This document shows, in pieces, positions 46,805 to 53,126 of a DNA stretch of 64,000 nt (the stretch's first letter is position 1; every line of letters starts with the position of its first letter). Source of the stretch: Acidobacteriota bacterium. Lineage in GTDB: Bacteria > Acidobacteriota > UBA6911 > RPQK01 > JAJDTT01. The notes below the pieces were generated by a model. That model had not been told where the DNA came from, did no database searches, and saw only the letters and a list, made by a program, of their open reading frames with translations. The stretch is from the NCBI GenBank assembly GCA_965209055.1, contig OZ242374.1, positions 3,616,001 to 3,680,000 of the forward strand. Direction: 5' to 3'. Position numbers and translations under genes: made by a program.

Positions 46805-46895
<91 letters not shown>

Positions 46896-47025
46896 TCTAT
46901 TCATGTAACTCTTTTTTTTAGAACGCTTTATCTGATAATTTGCAAAGGGATATCACGAATCATGCTGTATTTCGAACGGCATTAGTCTTTGCCGATCACA
47001 GTCGCGCATGCCTCCCCACGAAGTG

Positions 47026-47952
47026 TCAGCTGCTTTGAGGCCGACTATGGGGTACCACTATGGTGGGTGGGAGAGTGCTCACGGCTTGAATGAGGATGAA
47101 GACCTGATATGTCTGCGTGAATGACTCAGCGATGCACTCATGGCGCAGACCGTTGATGTCATTGAGAACAAGCGGTCGTTTCCCAGAAGACTTGCGGGTT
47201 CCGAGTGGAATTAGTGCTCCGAGCGGATCCGCTGGAGTAAAGACGGTACACCACGAGTACCCGCCGAAGGTCTTGAGGAACGAGTCAGACGAGATGACCC
47301 GACGAAGTGTGGCTCTGAATCCACCATTTGATAGTGTCGGAGGATTTAGGACCAGAACTACACAGCAGCGGTCGTTCTTTGAGACATACTGGCGTATCGA
47401 CGCGTACAGCGATGCGTCGAACTTCTTGGCCAGTCTTATCGGAGTCCAGATTTCGAACTTTTCGTCTGCCGCCATGCAGGCGAACGTATCGTTCTGGAAC
47501 AGCACCTCGGAAGCGAATACATTTGCTTCCCGGTCAAAGAGATCTGCGGCTGCGGGATCGAGTGCCTGATCGCAGTCCTCGACAAGATCGTACATGGCCC
47601 GCTGCCAAGGCATAAACCCATGCCCGGCTTCGTGAAGCATGACAAACCGTTTCCTGACGGGCTTTAGAAGATGGTCGACGAAGACTATGTTCGACTTTAC
47701 GTCGAAAACGCCGACCACCTTGGATAGGGCTCGCTTGAGCGCGTCGCCTGCTTTGGAGCGCAACTTCGACAGGAATTTCTCGTTGAGTACCTCGTCTTCG
47801 ACCTGCTCGACATTCGCCACGGCGAGGATGTGGTCAACGGGTGTGGGAAGATTGCCGAGAGCGCCGGCCTCAAGCAATGCTCTGCGGGCGTGGCGGCGTA
47901 CGTTGAGCAGCTGAGCGGGCGTTAGCGAGCTGTCGTCGGGTTTGTGCGTCAT
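47026..47952 (-). CDS. ImmA/IrrE family Zn metallopeptidase (CapP-like)
   Basis: RKRFVMLHEAGH (HExxH), DREANVFASEVLF, C-terminal GAF-like region; ATGA-coupled to the HTH gene. Confidence 0.85.
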   Translation of the reverse strand: MTHKPDDSSLTPAQLLNVRRHARRALLEAGALGNLPTPVDHILAVANVEQVEDEVLNEKFLSKLRSKAGDALKRALSKVVGVFDVKSNIVFVDHLLKPVRKRFVMLHEAGHGFMPWQRAMYDLVEDCDQALDPAAADLFDREANVFASEVLFQNDTFACMAADEKFEIWTPIRLAKKFDASLYASIRQYVSKNDRCCVVLVLNPPTLSNGGFRATLRRVISSDSFLKTFGGYSWCTVFTPADPLGALIPLGTRKSSGKRPLVLNDINGLRHECIAESFTQTYQVFILIQAVSTLPPTIVVPHSRPQSS

Positions 47953-48323
47953 CGTTTTCTACGCCATCGAATAAAGGCAAGGTGTTCTCGGAGAGCCTCC
48001 TCCTCTTCAGCCGTGAGGTCTTCGATGGAGTAGGTGGCGGCCTTTCCGTGTTTCGCGGCGTCTCCCCGTTGTGTCTGGGACACGATATAACCGGTCCGTT
48101 CCATCAATAGCTCATAGGGAATGGCAAGTGCTTGCGATAGAGCGTACAGAACATGCGGGGACGGTTTTCTGACCTTGCCGGTTTCAAGTTGGCTCAGGTA
48201 CGCATTACTGACCTCCTTTCCAGTCGCTTCCTCGACGTCCCGGAGAGAAAGGCCTTGAGCGGTTCGGGCGGCTCTTAGGTACTGCCCCAGTTTGTTGGGC
48301 TGATCTGGAGTTCCGTTGGCCAT
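47949..48323 (-). CDS. XRE family HTH repressor (CapH-like)
   Basis: GLSLRDVE, SNAYLSQLETG..KPS, C-terminal LTAEEEEALREHLAFIR; AGGAGAGG RBS. Confidence 0.88.
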   Translation of the reverse strand: MANGTPDQPNKLGQYLRAARTAQGLSLRDVEEATGKEVSNAYLSQLETGKVRKPSPHVLYALSQALAIPYELLMERTGYIVSQTQRGDAAKHGKAATYSIEDLTAEEEEALREHLAFIRWRRKR

Positions 48324-48379
48324 GGGCACCTCTCCTGTTCAACAAGGACAGCGTGTTGGCCGTAGTCTATTTATTGAAC

Positions 48380-48426
48380 GCTTGAGGTGTCAAGCATCGC
48401 TCGGGATATGCTTGATCTGTCAAGCA
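48380..48426. promoter_or_regulatory. Two palindromic operators GCTTGA-N4-TCAAGC
   Basis: GCTTGAGGTGTCAAGC (48380-48395) and TGCTTGATCTGTCAAGCA (48409-48426), 30 bp apart. Confidence 0.75.
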
Positions 48427-48441
48427 GTTGCATGGTATACT
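48412..48441 (+). promoter_or_regulatory. Promoter of the Ubl operon
   Basis: TTGATC-N18-TATACT with extended TG; the -35 lies inside operator 2. Confidence 0.6.
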
Positions 48442-48761
48442 GTGCAAAATGTTGATGGACGGTCCAAAAAAGGGTGAGGACGGAAGAAAAAAGAGAGGTG
48501 GAGGAAGAGGAGAATGTCCGCTACGACGACATCGGTCGTTTCTGTGGAGGACGGATTGCCGACGTCAACCACGCGGCGAGAGTACCGCCGACCGATCCAC
48601 CCGCAGTAAGCCTGCCGGACCCACCGGGCTCAGGCTGGACTTCGTCGCGGTAGGAAGAACGGAGGACGGGAGTCCGCTGCCTAGGAAAACATCAGTTTGG
48701 CGCACAATCGAGTCGAGTTGTTCGAATTACGCCTTAATTCCAACAATAGGAGAAGCAAACA

Positions 48762-49010
48762 ATGAACGGTGACACGCAGATTTACGTGAGCGGTCGAGAG
48801 TACAAGGTCCCGGGCCAAGTCGTGAGCTATGAGCAGGTCGTGGATATTTGGAACAAGCTGCACAAGGCGGAGAACAAGTACATCATCGGTACGCCCGGCA
48901 TCGACTACGAAGACAATTTGAAAGGCGAGGACGGCGTTCTCCTCCCCGGCAAAGATGTTGAAGTCAAGGACGGCACGAGCTTCTCGGTAGACCCCGAACA
49001 TGTCTCGTAA
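48762..49010 (+). CDS. Multi-ubiquitin-family ubiquitin-like protein (single domain)
   Basis: IYVSGREYKV, VSYEQVV, GVLLPGKDVEVKDGTSFSV pattern; AGGAG RBS. Confidence 0.75.
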   Translation: MNGDTQIYVSGREYKVPGQVVSYEQVVDIWNKLHKAENKYIIGTPGIDYEDNLKGEDGVLLPGKDVEVKDGTSFSVDPEHVS

Positions 49011-50187
49011 GGACCGCCTTTTTGGTTTCGCGAAACAGGCCGGCTTTACAGTCAGGATGGGCTCGGACGTTGTCGTGGCAAAGGACGTCCCATGTCTGCT
49101 TGTGAACGGGAAAGTCAGCTCTTGCACTATCGAAAAATCCTTCGATTCCGAGAGTGAGAAACCGAACACACGTATAGGAGGCGCAGCCCATGGCGTGCGT
49201 ATCACGCCTGATGAAGCCCACGACGGCTGCGTCTACAATGCGGACAGGACGCCTGTCGGGAACCGCATAGGCGGGGATGGGCGGACTTGGTCGAACATTT
49301 CCATTCGGAAGGGCGGCGGAGATTGCCCAGAGGACGACGTGTCAGCATGGGACACGGTCCACCGCTATGCGAAGCAGATCGTCGGCGCCGTCTCTGCGTC
49401 TGGTTTTTACGAACCCGATTCTCTCCGGGACCAAGGTCCGTTCAAGATTCCCAATACTTTCGAGGCACGAGCGGCAATTGGCCCGGTTCAGGATCGCATA
49501 CGCGATCAGCGGATTGCGATCATCGGGTTGGGTGGAACGGGCGCCTACGTTCTGGACCTAATTGCAAAGACGCCGGTGATCGAGATACATCTCTTGGACT
49601 CCGATCACGTTGATTGGCACAATCTCATGCGTGCACCGGGGGCACCTTCTACCGACGAGATTGAGTCCCTGCGGAGGGAGACCCTGCGCAAAGTGGAATA
49701 CTATCGTTCCAAATACTCATCGTTGCGAGAAGGGATCCACTTGCACGTTTCCCGTGTGGTTGGCTCATCTGAGTTTGCTAAGTTTTTGACGGCTTATCCC
49801 ATCGATTTCGCCTTCGTGTGCATCGACCAAGTGGCCGACTCCGACTCACCTCGTCAAGATGCTGTGTACTTTGCGCTCTCGGAAGCGGAGGTACCGTTCA
49901 TAGACTCGGGTGTGAGCATAACGCTGGAGGGCCGCGCGGTCAGAGGCGTCGTGACAACGAGCGTGTATGCCGGAGGCTCTCTGGCATGGAAGGAGGCCAT
50001 ACCGAATGCTAGAGTCCGGGGCAATGTGCCTGGTTATCGCAACGTTCAACTGCCGGAAGTGAACGCGTTGGCGGCGTCACTTGCCGTGATGGAGTGGCGG
50101 CGCCGCACGGAACAGTATGTTTCGGAGTCCACTTCGTTTCTCCATAAGTTCCGCCTTGAGGCGCCGCGGATTGTCAATGTGGGCTGA
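49000..50187 (+). CDS. ThiF/E1-family adenylyltransferase with N-terminal DUF6791-like domain
   Basis: IAIIGLGGTGAYVLDLIAKTPV.EIHLLD.D, HNLMRAPGA, FAFVCID, PFIDSG, NVQLPEVNAL. Confidence 0.82.
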   Translation: MSRKDRLFGFAKQAGFTVRMGSDVVVAKDVPCLLVNGKVSSCTIEKSFDSESEKPNTRIGGAAHGVRITPDEAHDGCVYNADRTPVGNRIGGDGRTWSNISIRKGGGDCPEDDVSAWDTVHRYAKQIVGAVSASGFYEPDSLRDQGPFKIPNTFEARAAIGPVQDRIRDQRIAIIGLGGTGAYVLDLIAKTPVIEIHLLDSDHVDWHNLMRAPGAPSTDEIESLRRETLRKVEYYRSKYSSLREGIHLHVSRVVGSSEFAKFLTAYPIDFAFVCIDQVADSDSPRQDAVYFALSEAEVPFIDSGVSITLEGRAVRGVVTTSVYAGGSLAWKEAIPNARVRGNVPGYRNVQLPEVNALAASLAVMEWRRRTEQYVSESTSFLHKFRLEAPRIVNVG

Positions 50188-50205
50188 CGTGCAGGAATAG
50201 AATCT

Positions 50206-50622
50206 GTGAAACTCCGGCCCATTTTTGTAGACGTATTGCCCGAGTTCAACACAATCAAAGCCGGCGAGCTCTGGATCAGCCACAAGTACCGGACCGTCAA
50301 CCTGCGTTGCCCCTGCGGTTGCGGCAATTTGACGGTGCTGTCGCTCCACCCCAGCCGGTGGCATGTTCACTTCGATGGGAAGTCGGTTTCCCTGGACGGT
50401 CCCACGGGCGGGTCGGTGTGGGCGAATTCGGGCTGCGGCAGCCATTACCTCATACGGAACAACGCTGTGATTTGGGCGGACAGGATCGATCCAGGTTGTC
50501 ATTATCAATATGCCGACATCGAGCGGGCCAGACTGCTTGGCTCGAAACCGAGCCACGAGACTCTTGGTTCACGGATCGGACGTGTATGGCGCCGTCTGTT
50601 GTCAGGGTGCAGGCGCAAGTAG
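50206..50622 (+). CDS. DUF6527-like Cys/His metal-binding protein
   Basis: GELWIS, RCPCGCG, SL....GSV, CGSHYLIRNNAVIW. Confidence 0.75.
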   Translation: MKLRPIFVDVLPEFNTIKAGELWISHKYRTVNLRCPCGCGNLTVLSLHPSRWHVHFDGKSVSLDGPTGGSVWANSGCGSHYLIRNNAVIWADRIDPGCHYQYADIERARLLGSKPSHETLGSRIGRVWRRLLSGCRRK

Positions 50623-50722
50623 CGCGCCTTCCACTCGGAGGCTAACCATTCGGTCCAACGAGCGCAGCCGTGCACGCAACTGGTGCCCGCGACGGAAAAT
50701 GTAAAGGGGCAAGTAGATGACG

Positions 50723-50965
50723 TCAGCCGAACCTCTTCAATCTTCTCGATTTCCCTCGCTCGCGCCTAAGCAATGAGACCATCTCCCGGGTGGAGATGTT
50801 CGCCTTGATTGAGGGAACGTTCAAGGGTGACGTGGGGGTCCCCTCCGGCACAAGAGCATTGGTCCTCCCGTCTCTTCGACGAATGTACACTTTGCCTGTT
50901 GAATCCGCCTCATCCAATACGGTGGAAAGGTCTTGTCTGGCTTCAGTGTGGGTAAAGATTTTCAT
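50723..50965 (-). CDS. Phd/YefM family antitoxin (orphan)
   Basis: MKIFTHTEARQDLSTVLDEA...GKVYIRRRDG. Confidence 0.75.
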   Translation of the reverse strand: MKIFTHTEARQDLSTVLDEADSTGKVYIRRRDGRTNALVPEGTPTSPLNVPSIKANISTREMVSLLRRERGKSRRLKRFG

Positions 50966-51037
50966 TTGAAACCTGCTGAGGCGCCGCTGGATCCGGCTGG
51001 TTTCAATTCCAGTGCCGAACACGACTGTCGGCACTAA

Positions 51038-52227
51038 GGAAGGTCTGATTAAGTCCTCATATGGGGCGAAACAGACCTTGTATCCCTCCCTTTTTCGGAT
51101 CCAGACGCTCTAACCTGGGATTTGCAACCCTGAATTGGTCTTGACCAAGCGATTGCGAGACGGTTTCCCCAGCCTCAAACACAGCCGTGCCGCATTCCGA
51201 TCAGGCGGTCACACCGGAGCGCTCGGCGATCATCAGATTGGCGAATCCCACCAGCAGATAGATCCGTTGGGTGTTTTTCGCCAGCCCGCGGTAGCGCACC
51301 TTGGCGTAGCCGAAATGCCGTTTCAGGTACCCGAACACATGTTCTGCCTTCGCCCGTACCGATGCCTTACGCCGCTCGGCCAACGCCGCCTCACTCTCCG
51401 GCGACAGCTGCCAACGCTTCCCGGGCTTCATCATCACCTGCCAATCCACCGGCCGATCTCGATTCTCCGACCGCTTCTGCACTCCCTGGTATCCGGAATC
51501 CCCCCAAACTTGCGACTCCGAGCCGTGCAGCAATTCGGAGGCCCGCGTCACGTCATGCTCGTTGGCCGGAGCCGTCACCACCGTGTGCGCCACCCCCGTC
51601 TGGGCGTCCACCCCCAGGTGGGCCTTCATTCCGAAATACCACTGTTTTCCCTTTTTCGTCTGGTGCATCTCCGGATCCCGCGCCCGATCCTTGTTTTTCG
51701 TCGAGGAAGGCGCCGCCAGGATACTCGCGTCCACGATCGTCCCCCGGCTCAGCCGCAGGCCTTGACGCTGCAGGTGAGAACCGATCTCCTCGAACAGCGC
51801 CTCCCCCAGACCATGCTCCTCCAGCCGATGACGGAACTTCAGAATCGTCGTCTCGTCCGGCAGCGGCCCTGTGAGCTTCAGACCCACGAACCGCCGCACC
51901 GACTCCACCTCGTAAAGCAGATCCTCCATCCCCGGATCGCTCAGGTTGTAAAACAACTGCACGCAGTGGATCCGCAGCATCGCCGAGAGCGGGTAGGGAC
52001 GCCGGCCCCGTCCCGCTTTCGGGTAAAACGGCTCAATCCGGGCTTCCAACTGCTCCCACGGAATCAACCCGTCCATGCGGACCAGAAACTTCTCCCGACG
52101 GGTCACCCGCTTCTTGGCGTCGTATTCCAGATCTGCGAACGTCCGTTGCGACATCGTCTTTCCCCCCACGCAGTGATGATGAAGGGATTATCGTGCAGAA
52201 CGCTGACTCGACTTAATCAGACCTTCC
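51038..52227 (-). mobile_element. IS5 family insertion sequence
   Basis: Perfect 18 bp terminal IRs GGAAGGTCTGATTAAGTC / GACTTAATCAGACCTTCC; flanks CTAA and CTAG (YTAR-type). Confidence 0.95.
51201..52154 (-). CDS. IS5 family transposase
   Basis: TRREKFL, PDETTI, IVDAS, WYFGMKAH.GVD, WGDSGY, RAKAEH.F, RYRGLAKN. Confidence 0.95.
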   Translation of the reverse strand: MSQRTFADLEYDAKKRVTRREKFLVRMDGLIPWEQLEARIEPFYPKAGRGRRPYPLSAMLRIHCVQLFYNLSDPGMEDLLYEVESVRRFVGLKLTGPLPDETTILKFRHRLEEHGLGEALFEEIGSHLQRQGLRLSRGTIVDASILAAPSSTKNKDRARDPEMHQTKKGKQWYFGMKAHLGVDAQTGVAHTVVTAPANEHDVTRASELLHGSESQVWGDSGYQGVQKRSENRDRPVDWQVMMKPGKRWQLSPESEAALAERRKASVRAKAEHVFGYLKRHFGYAKVRYRGLAKNTQRIYLLVGFANLMIAERSGVTA

Positions 52228-52590
52228 CTAGATCGCCAATGGAACAATCTTCGAGCCCTGTATGGTCCGGTCCCGGGTGAGGAGCGGTACGTTGTGGACG
52301 ATGCTGGTGGCGGCAATGAGCTCGTCCGCCGGATCGCCCTTGAAATCGAGGCGGGTTGACGTGACTGCGACGGCTAGATCGATCGGCCATACCTGCACAC
52401 GGTTCAATGCGCGCACCACTTCGCGATCATTCAGGTCAATATCCACCCGGCCCAGTTGAACCAGTTTGGCCAACTCCCATAGCACGATGGCGGATACAGA
52501 CCACCTGTTGCGTTTCAGCAGAGTCTGCTCGGACGGACGGAGTTCACCAGCGAGGGCACGGACAAGGATGTGCGTATCAAGATTGAGCAT
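52228..52590 (-). CDS. vapC: VapC/PIN domain toxin
   Basis: LDTHIL, SAIVLWE, DPADELIAATS, LLTRD. Confidence 0.88.
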   Translation of the reverse strand: MLNLDTHILVRALAGELRPSEQTLLKRNRWSVSAIVLWELAKLVQLGRVDIDLNDREVVRALNRVQVWPIDLAVAVTSTRLDFKGDPADELIAATSIVHNVPLLTRDRTIQGSKIVPLAI

Positions 52591-52801
52591 CGGCATCCCA
52601 GCGGAGACCGGTCGTCAGGAGGTCGCCCCGTATCTCGATCTTGTGTTCAAGGCTGCCGATCAGGTTGCCGCATTCCTGATCATAGGGAAGGACACGCGCG
52701 ACCGGTTTGCCATGCTTGGTCACGATCAAGCCCTCCGCATCCAGTCGCTCCAACAGGGCCAAGCATTGTTCCTTGAACTTTGCTGCTCCAATTGTCTTCA
52801 T
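52577..52801 (-). CDS. Phd/YefM family antitoxin
   Basis: IGAAKFKEQCLALL, VTKHGKPVARV; overlaps the vapC start. Confidence 0.88.
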   Translation of the reverse strand: MKTIGAAKFKEQCLALLERLDAEGLIVTKHGKPVARVLPYDQECGNLIGSLEHKIEIRGDLLTTGLRWDADAQS

Positions 52802-52818
52802 CGTTCAGCTCCCCGCAT

Positions 52819-52858
52819 AGTGGACATATATTATAACCAGTCATAATAAATGTCTACT
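52819..52858 (-). promoter_or_regulatory. TA promoter within an imperfect palindrome
   Basis: AGTGGACAT..TATTAT-N8-ATAATA..ATGTCTACT; the minus strand reads TAGACA...TATAAT. Confidence 0.6.
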
Positions 52859-52962
52859 TTTCGACTTGCCTTCCATGGCTCGAATCGCGGGGAATCTGCT
52901 AGACTGACGCTCGCCGGACGCCCCGGCCCTGGCCGGCGGCGTTTCTCCGGTCTTCCAGCCGT

Positions 52963-53035
52963 GGGCCGTTAGCTCAGTCGGTAGAGCATCTGCCTTTTAA
53001 GCAGAGGGTCGCTGGTTCGATCCCAGCACGGCCCA
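52963..53035 (+). tRNA. tRNA-Lys(TTT), CCA not encoded
   Basis: GGGCCGT/ACGGCCC acceptor stem, TCTGC-CTTTTAA-GCAGA, GTTCGATCC. Confidence 0.96.
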
Positions 53036-53126
53036 CCCCCGTTTCCGAGAGAAGAAGAGGAAAGCCCTCCCGCCGGTCGCCGGGTCCGCCTTGGTGCTTG
53101 AGCGGGGGACACGAGTGTCCTCTCTA

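Follow-up and report, generated by a model that had tools for sequence, protein, structure and literature searches.

A probable Type II Bub operon behind a divergent CapH/CapP-type regulator pair, next to tRNA-Ser in an Acidobacteriota bacterium

A five-gene locus with the composition of a Type II Bub operon

We analysed a 64,000-nucleotide stretch of the genome of an Acidobacteriota bacterium (assembly GCA_965209055.1, contig OZ242374.1, positions 3,616,001 to 3,680,000 of the forward strand; hereafter the window, whose coordinates are used throughout). The subject is a five-gene locus directly behind a tRNA-Ser gene, comprising a two-gene regulator pair and a divergent three-gene operon of the Bub family of ubiquitin-like conjugation systems. 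The features are as follows.

46805-46894, plus strand: tRNA-Ser(GGA), left border of the islet (ARAGORN; Rfam tRNA, 58.7 bits)
47026-47952, minus strand: capP-like peptidase open reading frame (ORF), 308 residues, Peptidase_M78 (Pfam)
47949-48329, minus strand: capH-like XRE helix-turn-helix (HTH) ORF, 126 residues from a GTG start, HTH_3 (Pfam)
48762-49010, plus strand: bubA, 82 residues, single beta-grasp ubiquitin-like protein, Multi_ubiq PF14452
49000-50187, plus strand: bubBD, 395 residues, N-terminal E2-like domain followed by a ThiF/E1 domain
49000-49419, plus strand: E2-like domain of bubBD (about residues 1-140), with H64, S101, R103/K104 and Y123
49420-50187, plus strand: E1 adenylation domain of bubBD, PF00899, with G176xGGxG181, D200, D202, R211, K231 and Y346
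50206-50622, plus strand: bubE, 138 residues, DUF6527 PF20137

All five reading frames are open and full length. The 3' end of the tRNA gene lies 131 nt from the stop codon of the peptidase gene. The two regulator ORFs overlap by 4 nt and are divergent from the bub operon, in which bubA and bubBD overlap by 11 nt and bubBD is followed by bubE after a gap of 18 nt. Pfam assigned Peptidase_M78 at an E-value of 4.6e-8, HTH_3 at 1.5e-12 and DUF6527 at 3.4e-15; the ThiF match (2.2e-13) covers residues 163-365 of BubBD and leaves about 160 extra N-terminal residues. Together the ORFs and Pfam families give the gene complement and order ubiquitin-like protein (Ubl), E2-E1 fusion, DUF6527 protein, with no separate E2 gene at the locus and no sulfurtransferase or biosynthetic genes nearby. 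No JAB family was present among the nine proteins scanned by Pfam between 47026 and 52801, and the whole genome holds one DUF6527 gene. A first-pass annotation of this DNA, made by reading the sequence, had placed the same five ORFs in the same families and had described a module for Ubl/E1 transfer that lacks both a JAB peptidase and a separate E2 and stands behind a CapH/CapP-type pair; the ORF list and Pfam bear out both statements.

Operons previously called "6E/DUF6527" have been renamed Bub (Ye, Gong, Chambers, Corbett, bioRxiv 10.1101/2024.11.21.623953). According to the available part of that preprint, Type II Bub (formerly 6E.2/DUF6527) consists of a BubA Ubl, a BubBD E2-E1 fusion and a BubE DUF6527 protein, "typically" without JAB; conjugation proceeds through oxyesters, on a Tyr of the E1 crossover loop and then on a Ser of the E2; E. 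coli BubBD is inactive as R219A, Y342F or S106A; and the Type II E2 domain carries an invariant Ser, Lys and His. The same text describes BubE as a zinc-finger Ser-His peptidase that removes BubA conjugates (C57/C59/C61/C99 and S92/H102 in Citrobacter), counts CapH together with CapP in 168 of 544 catalogued Bub operons and places the two studied Bub operons in mobile elements at tRNA genes. The Type II Bub work is cited as Ye et al. 2026 in PMC13373217, in the part of that article available to us; the peer-reviewed versions of the preprints are cited as Gong et al. 2025 and Ye et al. 2026. The window locus is very probably an intact Type II Bub operon under a divergent CapH+CapP-type pair, carried on a 3.8-kb horizontally acquired islet beside tRNA-Ser.

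BubBD carries a conserved E1 domain and a probable, diverged E2-like domain

The BubBD alignment consisted of the window protein and 102 full-length representatives (103 in total), drawn from 779 matches at E ≤0.001 in a search of 1.84 billion cluster representatives. The nucleotide loop reads G176-L-G-G-T-G181 in the translation. G176xGGxG181, D200, D202, R211 and K231 are each present in 103 of the 103 sequences, Y346 in 102 and Y123 in 100; in 139 sequences, G176, G178, G179, G181, D200, D202 and R211 are invariant. H64 of the E2-like domain is found in 103/103 and S101 in 98/103, and within a close clade of 46 members H64, S101 and R211 are complete (46/46) and Y346 nearly so (45/46). No Cys is conserved across the family, the best column being that of C274 (64/103).

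The AlphaFold model of BubBD has a predicted local distance difference test score (pLDDT) of 90.3, with low confidence only at residues 344-346; the uncertain loop bears Y346, which fits the flexible crossover loop described for Bub. The best structural match of the model by VIA is Citrobacter BubCD (9ea5_A; Z 21.9, root-mean-square deviation (rmsd) 3.5, 222 residues aligned). Foldseek recovered the same protein at 4.8e-12, and the BubBD family profile had BubCD as its best match in the Protein Data Bank (PDB) among all E1s (1.3e-11). The model also aligns along the whole length of Cap2 (7to3_A; Z 17.7, 312 residues, rmsd 14.5, VIA).

The N-terminal domain was compared at profile level. hhalign of the clade N-domains against 95 mainstream Type II N-domains gave a probability of 97.2% (E 4.4e-11, 121 columns), in which H64 aligns with the mainstream invariant His and S101 with the Ser of the S-x-K-P motif. 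This comparison supports an E2-like domain on a diverged branch, as had been guessed for the N-terminal part of the ThiF protein in the first-pass annotation. In the ESM Atlas the three best clusters for residues 1-140 are DUF6791 (0.76-0.78), a range below the level at which the tool counts a match as more than a lead. Among 10 sampled mainstream relatives, PF20590 (DUF6791) scored over its cut-off in five, below it in one and gave no match in four. The BubBD profile searched against the PDB returned E1 chains only, with no sequence-level link of the N-domain to BubB or other E2s. An SDR match on residues 1-145 (Pfam) was at chance level (E 0.15) and was discarded.

BubA and BubE match the Ubl and deconjugase of the family

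BubA scores above the cut-off of Multi_ubiq PF14452 (3.5e-6; 27.5 bits against 24.5). Its predicted model (pLDDT 86.5) has as top Foldseek match the E. coli ZDHYS365 multi-ubiquitin protein 9cd2 (E 4.2e-5, template-modelling score 0.65), followed by other beta-grasp proteins; by sequence, BubA gave chance-level matches only in the PDB. The earlier reading of the 82-residue protein as a beta-grasp protein thus agrees with its predicted fold. Bub Ubls have one to three beta-grasp domains, the three-domain form being nearly as common as the one-domain form, according to the available portion of a companion preprint (bioRxiv 10.1101/2024.11.21.623966); a one-domain BubA of 82 residues is therefore within the known range.

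The C-terminus of BubA is strongly constrained. In 41 of 41 aligned sequences its last 13 residues show no variation, and the protein ends in E-H-V-S with a final Ser in 45/45 sequences (Ser82 here, not Gly). A C-terminal Ser is likewise found in BubA of PGAP-annotated plasmid operons of Rhizobium etli and Acinetobacter johnsonii, which encode multiubiquitin, ThiF and DUF6527 proteins. Because it is shared with these plasmid proteins, the terminal Ser looks like a Type II trait rather than a defect. The 11-nt overlap with the start of bubBD may be a partial cause of the C-terminal invariance.

We weighed here a sulfur-carrier or peptide-modifying ThiF system (ThiS/ThiF, MoaD/MoeB, MccB) that makes a cofactor or small product. 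It draws on the structural closeness of the E1 domain to MoeB (Z 21.0), MccB (Z 20.5) and ThiF, a comparison that also gave a UBA5 fold match, and on some ThiS-like fold similarity of the BubA model (3cwi, E 0.021). Such a system is nonetheless hardly credible at this locus: BubA ends in Ser and not in the Gly-Gly of a ThiS/MoaD-type carrier, no sulfurtransferase or biosynthetic gene is a neighbour, an extra E2-like domain is fused to the E1, a peptidase of a BubA-directed family is present, and the best match of the E1 domain is BubCD.

BubE contains the motifs C35-P-C37-G-C39 and C77-G-S79-H80, followed by a basic C-terminal extension. Across 39 sequences C35, C39, C77 and H80 never vary, and conservation of C37 and S70 is at least 90%. 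All six residues of the C4 site and the dyad lie at a constant offset of -22 from Citrobacter BubE C57/C59/C61/C99 and S92/H102. Judged by these residues, BubE is a zinc-finger Ser-His peptidase of the DUF6527 family with all six key positions present. The adaptor or effector function once suggested for this protein is superseded, as the family removes BubA conjugates and the six key residues are present here. Prediction of a BubE-BubA complex scored 0.46 (runs 0.46, 0.44 and 0.63) against a best control of 0.00, a weak support for the pairing; the runs agree in at least 88% of contacts, with partner pLDDT of at least 76. In calibration of the tool the mark was reached by 58 of 80 solved complexes and by 2 of 110 mismatched pairs, and passes at a score of 0.60 or lower, made by only seven of the 80 solved complexes and by both mismatches, are unreliable.

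The regulator pair and the divergent promoter region

An HTH repressor gene and an HExxH metallopeptidase gene adjoin each other beside the promoter of the bub operon. In the PADLOC check that the first-pass annotation had suggested, both regulators were matched: capP at 7.4e-14, over profile positions 50-162 of 242 only, and capH at 1.2e-10, over residues 11-116. The peptidase motif H107-E-A-G-H111 can be read in the translation; in 30 sequences H107, E108 and H111 do not vary, and E142 has a conservation of at least 90%. The protein belongs to a large family of ImmA/IrrE proteins of about 305 residues, of which 1216 homologues were found. By sequence, nothing in the PDB matched CapP at E 0.01 or better. 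Published CapP is built of a peptidase, an HTH-like linker and, at its C-terminus, a GAF domain with a single-stranded DNA (ssDNA) groove, and one third of its members have a cysteine-switch loop (Lau et al., bioRxiv 10.1101/2022.04.27.489752, in its available part). CapH binds a symmetric promoter site, and its cleavage by ssDNA-stimulated CapP derepresses the operon, as far as the accessible text of two reports goes (Lau et al. 10.1101/2022.04.27.489752; Calloji et al. 10.64898/2026.05.16.725639).

For comparison across genomes we used a set of related loci with one genome per species (50 loci, all in metagenome-assembled genomes, MAGs). The start of the HTH gene is more likely the ATG at 48323 (124 residues) than the GTG (126 residues), since the ATG is preceded by a GGAGAGG site and is conserved in loci L030 and L043, the only two of the 50 with the regulator type of the window. 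Two further features lie between the regulators and bubA.

48380-48441, no strand: divergent promoter/operator region, two palindromes and promoter-like sites
48442-48761, plus strand: long untranslated bubA leader, AGGAG ribosome-binding site at its 3' end

Two perfect palindromes of the 6-4-6 form, GCTTGA-N4-TCAAGC, lie 30 bp apart in the promoter region, at 48380-48395 and at 48410-48425. Both overlie the -35 boxes of two divergent promoter-like sites, one on the minus strand from 48393 and one on the plus strand at 48412-48441. The half-sites are largely kept in L030 and L043, and the conserved palindromes are likely operators, as candidate sites. The leader was also considered as a repeat element, a known RNA and a stable structure; these were ruled out by its single copy in the genome, by the lack of an Rfam match and by a fold z-score of -0.74, respectively. 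At the start of the leader (48457-48498) two purine-rich 21-nt units stand in tandem, with 71% likeness between them.

The three-gene core recurs with different regulators in distant lineages

BubBD had 1814 matches among 8000 candidates scored, the top 120 at 71-100% identity. The MAGs with the 50 related loci are labelled Dehalococcoidia, Longimicrobiales, Vicinamibacterales, Latescibacterota, Alpha- and Gammaproteobacteria, Acidimicrobiales, Binatia, Saccharibacteria and others. Near-full-length BubBD matches at 56-76% identity occur in 45 of them, and tblastn matched BubA in 46 and BubE in 47; with same-strand matches of at least 85% query coverage, the counts are 44 for BubA, 45 for BubBD and 42 for BubE. 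Because BubA, BubBD and BubE recur together across the 50 loci, the five-gene arrangement is not due to chance. In complete E. coli genomes, blastn with the core as query found nothing.

DNA homology to the window spans only about 48700-50640, a core of 1.9 kb at 65-80% identity. Of 48 loci examined, 35 have an M78 peptidase ORF upstream, accompanied by HTH ORFs. In the ORFs sampled there, 6/6 were Peptidase_M78 and 4/4 neighbours were HTH, with capP the best PADLOC model in 4/6. These upstream regulators occur in several forms. Five loci (L021, L023, L028, L032 and L039) have a single regulator ORF of 374-396 residues in the same cluster as the M78 peptidases; in that of L021, HTH and M78 are fused in one protein, which PADLOC matched best to RmrA (2.9e-60) rather than to the two-gene CapH/CapP. 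The cores most like that of the window (L029, L001, L003) have other regulators or none of its type, whereas the loci with its regulator type (L030, L043) have less similar cores. From this mismatch between core likeness and regulator type we conclude that core and switch have recombined. The long bubA leader looks like the joint between the two, to judge from sequence comparison, because about 295 nt of it (the 5' part) are absent in L030 and L043 and its 3' 150 nt are shared with L005, L008 and L045. A tRNA or tmRNA gene lies within the fetched flanks in only 6 of the 50 loci, so a tRNA association is no general rule in the clade.

One Latescibacterota MAG contig, CBDCJO010000002.1, carries three copies of the cassette (L005, L006 and L045), each with a BubBD 74% identical to that of the window; the BubA match of L006 covers residues 43-82 only. 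Copies at L036, L042, L046 and L050 are truncated or interrupted, with BubBD matches that begin at residue 78, 145 or 141 or end at 49, and at L042 about 1.3 kb separate BubBD and BubE.

Comparison with characterised systems

The E. coli ZDHYS365 operon BubA-BubBD-BubE, a Type II Bub, has the same three genes in the same order without JAB. The two further agree in the absence of a catalytic Cys, in the kept Ser, His, Arg and Tyr, in the C4 zinc site and Ser-His dyad of BubE, in the CapH+CapP pair upstream and in their location on acquired DNA adjacent to a tRNA gene. They differ in BubA, which has one beta-grasp domain (82 residues) in the window and three in E. coli, and in the E2 domain of the window, which misses Pfam DUF6791, has Arg at the 'invariant Lys' and contains two clade-specific Cys residues. 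Type I Bub (6E.1; BubAB-BubCD-BubE of Citrobacter sp. RHBSTW-00271, PDB 9ea4, 9ea5, 9ea8, 9eae and 9eav) provides the best sequence and structure match of the E1 domain and the same BubE residues, and its published oxyester chemistry through Tyr and Ser would apply here by analogy; it differs in fusing the Ubl to the E2 and JAB to the E1, whereas here the Ubl is free, E2 and E1 are fused and JAB is absent. Bil (BilABCD) and Type II CBASS Cap2/Cap3 share bacterial E1/E2 conjugation with this locus, and Cap2 is also an E2-E1 fusion. Those systems, however, use Cys thioesters and a JAB deconjugase, and CBASS also uses a CD-NTase substrate; the window locus has none of these. Membership in Bil was likewise rejected, since the locus lacks a separate E2 gene, a JAB family member and a conserved Cys. 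The regulators resemble CapH+CapP in their overlapping HTH and HExxH peptidase genes divergent from the operon, in the PADLOC matches and in the palindromic sites of the shared promoter region; they differ in that the local CapP is only distantly similar to the solved Thauera CapP.

Several observations count against an assignment to Type II Bub under CapH/CapP control. Pfam DUF6791 (PF20590) gave no match to the window N-domain even at E up to 10, and the NCBIfam PRK06153 models align only from about residue 120, below their cut-offs, so that E2 membership rests on the profile-profile comparison rather than on a curated model. The VIA list for the whole BubBD model is filled by the E1 domain, and residues 1-143 were barely tested there. 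Arg103 stands where the preprint has its 'invariant' Lys beside the E2 Ser, with Lys104 next to it. The correspondence of S101, R211 and Y346 to E. coli S106, R219 and Y342 is a probable one, mapped by invariance and order and not by alignment. On the regulatory side, the sole PDB match of the CapP profile is Thauera CapP 7t5t (residues 88-201) at a weak E of 0.096, the C-terminal 100 residues of CapP fall outside the PADLOC profile match, and the promoter-like sites are not above chance (2 found against 1.9 expected in shuffles).

The points on the E2 domain would also suit a third kind of Bub, built of the same parts with a diverged E2-like domain that has a different active-site environment or hand-off. 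Position 103 is Lys in 80 of the 103 sequences and, within the clade of 46, Lys in 22, Arg in 18, His in five and Leu in one, with position 104 mostly Lys; Cys32 (49093-49095) and Cys42 (49123-49125) are invariant in 46/46 clade members, where mainstream proteins mostly have Tyr (81/103) and Gly (88/103); and only few representatives align over the full length. Against it stand the Ser, His, Arg and Tyr shown to be important in the Bub preprint, all of which are kept, the high hhalign probability between the two groups of N-domains, and the standard gene order and BubE. By the secondary structure of the model, moreover, the two cysteines belong to the first beta-hairpin, at a distance from S101 and outside the E2 active site. 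We regard this third kind as quite improbable. A broader version, in which the compact and very mobile clade would make up a third Bub type of its own, with a separate E2 chemistry or choice of targets, appears unlikely. The traits it would rest on are an 82-residue one-domain Ubl with an invariant Ser-ending tail, an E2 domain missed by DUF6791, Cys32/Cys42 and a variable basic residue by the catalytic Ser. The clade is spread over at least 10 phylum- or class-level uncultured lineages at 56-76% BubBD identity and has swapped its upstream regulators.

Type II Bub is thus the assignment we retain. The first-pass annotation had offered the module as a minimal, diverged one; the module is not new, as the locus fully matches a characterised system, an outcome that the annotation had itself named as refuting. 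The architecture is already named and has been studied biochemically, and this copy is a further example of it.

The islet and its neighbourhood

The five genes are alone on the following element.

46895-50711, no strand: islet of about 3.8 kb with five genes only, right end between 50623 and 50711

Eight genomes of the same genus share the tRNA-Ser flank at 87-97% identity, and the region beyond the tRNA was compared in six. None of the present conclusions depends on a further, unpublished genome, G014. Homology stops at 46894-46896 in 6/6 genomes. In G001 the flank joins vapC directly and window positions 46895-52227 are missing, whereas in G007 a Phd-like gene follows 85 nt after the tRNA flank, so that the missing DNA is confined to the five-gene block of about 3.8 kb. 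Other sister genomes carry different cargo at this site: an oxidoreductase and an FeoB-like GTPase in G002 and G003, signalling kinases (a hybrid kinase and a PP2C-kinase) in G004, and an insertion sequence (IS) element with a symporter in G005. On the 3' side of tRNA-Ser(GGA) (window 46895-52960, loci L061-L066) the six genomes thus have six different contents, from none to metabolic or signalling genes of about 5 kb in all; this makes the site a variable spot and no evident defence island. The islet has a G+C content of 0.53-0.58; the values are 0.61-0.68 in the DNA just upstream and 0.62-0.66 past 53000. No direct repeats of at least 14 nt (att-type, tRNA end) flank the islet, and its ORFs include no integrase.

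Several genes follow downstream. A Phd/YefM-like antitoxin ORF at 50723-51034 (minus strand) scores 25.9 bits, below the Pfam cut-off of 29.8, and has no adjacent toxin gene. Since G002, G003 and G007 share its 3' part at 78-82% DNA identity, it is assigned to the older flank, not to the Bub islet. An IS5-family DDE transposase at 51201-52169 (minus strand; DDE_Tnp_1 1.9e-28, with DUF772) lies between this orphan antitoxin and a VapBC pair, without a match in any of the six sister regions compared. The pair itself, a VapC (PIN) and a Phd-type antitoxin at 52228-52801 (minus strand), stands directly before tRNA-Lys(TTT) at 52962-53038 (plus strand) and is conserved in G001, G002, G003 and G007.

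The lack of an integrase or att repeat, the IS5-family transposase 580 nt downstream and the truncated copies in L036, L042, L046 and L050 could be taken as signs of a decaying, non-functional mobile-element remnant. We consider this very improbable for the window copy, in which all five frames are open over their full length, every catalytic residue is kept, and the ribosome-binding site and operators are conserved.

Proposed working and biological role

We infer all steps of the proposed working from the published biochemistry of the family and the residues found here. CapH would bind as dimers to the two GCTTGA-N4-TCAAGC palindromes over the divergent promoters and keep both units off. ssDNA arising from DNA damage or phage replication would activate CapP (H107, E108, H111, E142), which would cleave CapH and derepress the operon. 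The E1 domain of a BubBD dimer would then bind ATP (G176xGGxG181, D200, D202, R211) and adenylate the C-terminal carboxylate of BubA at Ser82. BubA would pass as an oxyester to Tyr346 of the flexible crossover loop, next to Ser101 of the fused E2-like domain, aided by His64 and the basic residue at 103/104; lysines of target proteins would be the last acceptors. BubE, with its C4 zinc site and Ser70-His80 dyad, would cleave the BubA conjugates and so limit the reaction.

For such tagging we favour an inducible anti-phage or anti-mobile-element role, as a guess with a chance of about one half; a broader DNA-damage response is the alternative. The specific alternative, Type II Bub biochemistry serving a general DNA-damage or stress role or mobile-element competition and not phage defence, is a strong contender that we put somewhat below an even chance. 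In the available text of a 2026 EMBO J paper, neither a target nor phage protection had been shown for any Bub operon as of its publication, and the Bub authors, in the accessible part of their work, report no phage protection and raise the same alternative. The regulator senses DNA damage, not phage as such, according to the available parts of Lau et al. (10.1101/2022.04.27.489752) and Calloji et al. (10.64898/2026.05.16.725639). Next to the operon lie toxin-antitoxin genes and an IS element rather than known defence systems, and the cargo of sister genomes at the site is metabolic or signalling; as that cargo is not defence-related, the neighbourhood gives no support for an immune role. On the other side, CapH+CapP, CapW and CapK+CapS accompany many proven immune systems, and the related Bil and CBASS-Cap2 systems are antiviral, so far as the available parts of the same papers state. 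The cassette is moreover patchy and has spread horizontally across phyla. A patchy horizontal spread of this kind is usual for defence genes.

The known working of Bub systems is unchanged by this copy. The locus is one more Type II Bub operon that is intact and has a CapH/CapP switch, from a lineage represented by MAGs alone, and its 1.9-kb three-gene core travels between distant phyla, recombining with different regulator modules. With the smallest possible Ubl (82 residues, one domain) and clean islet borders, it could serve as a convenient minimal model for learning what is tagged by Bub, and to what end.

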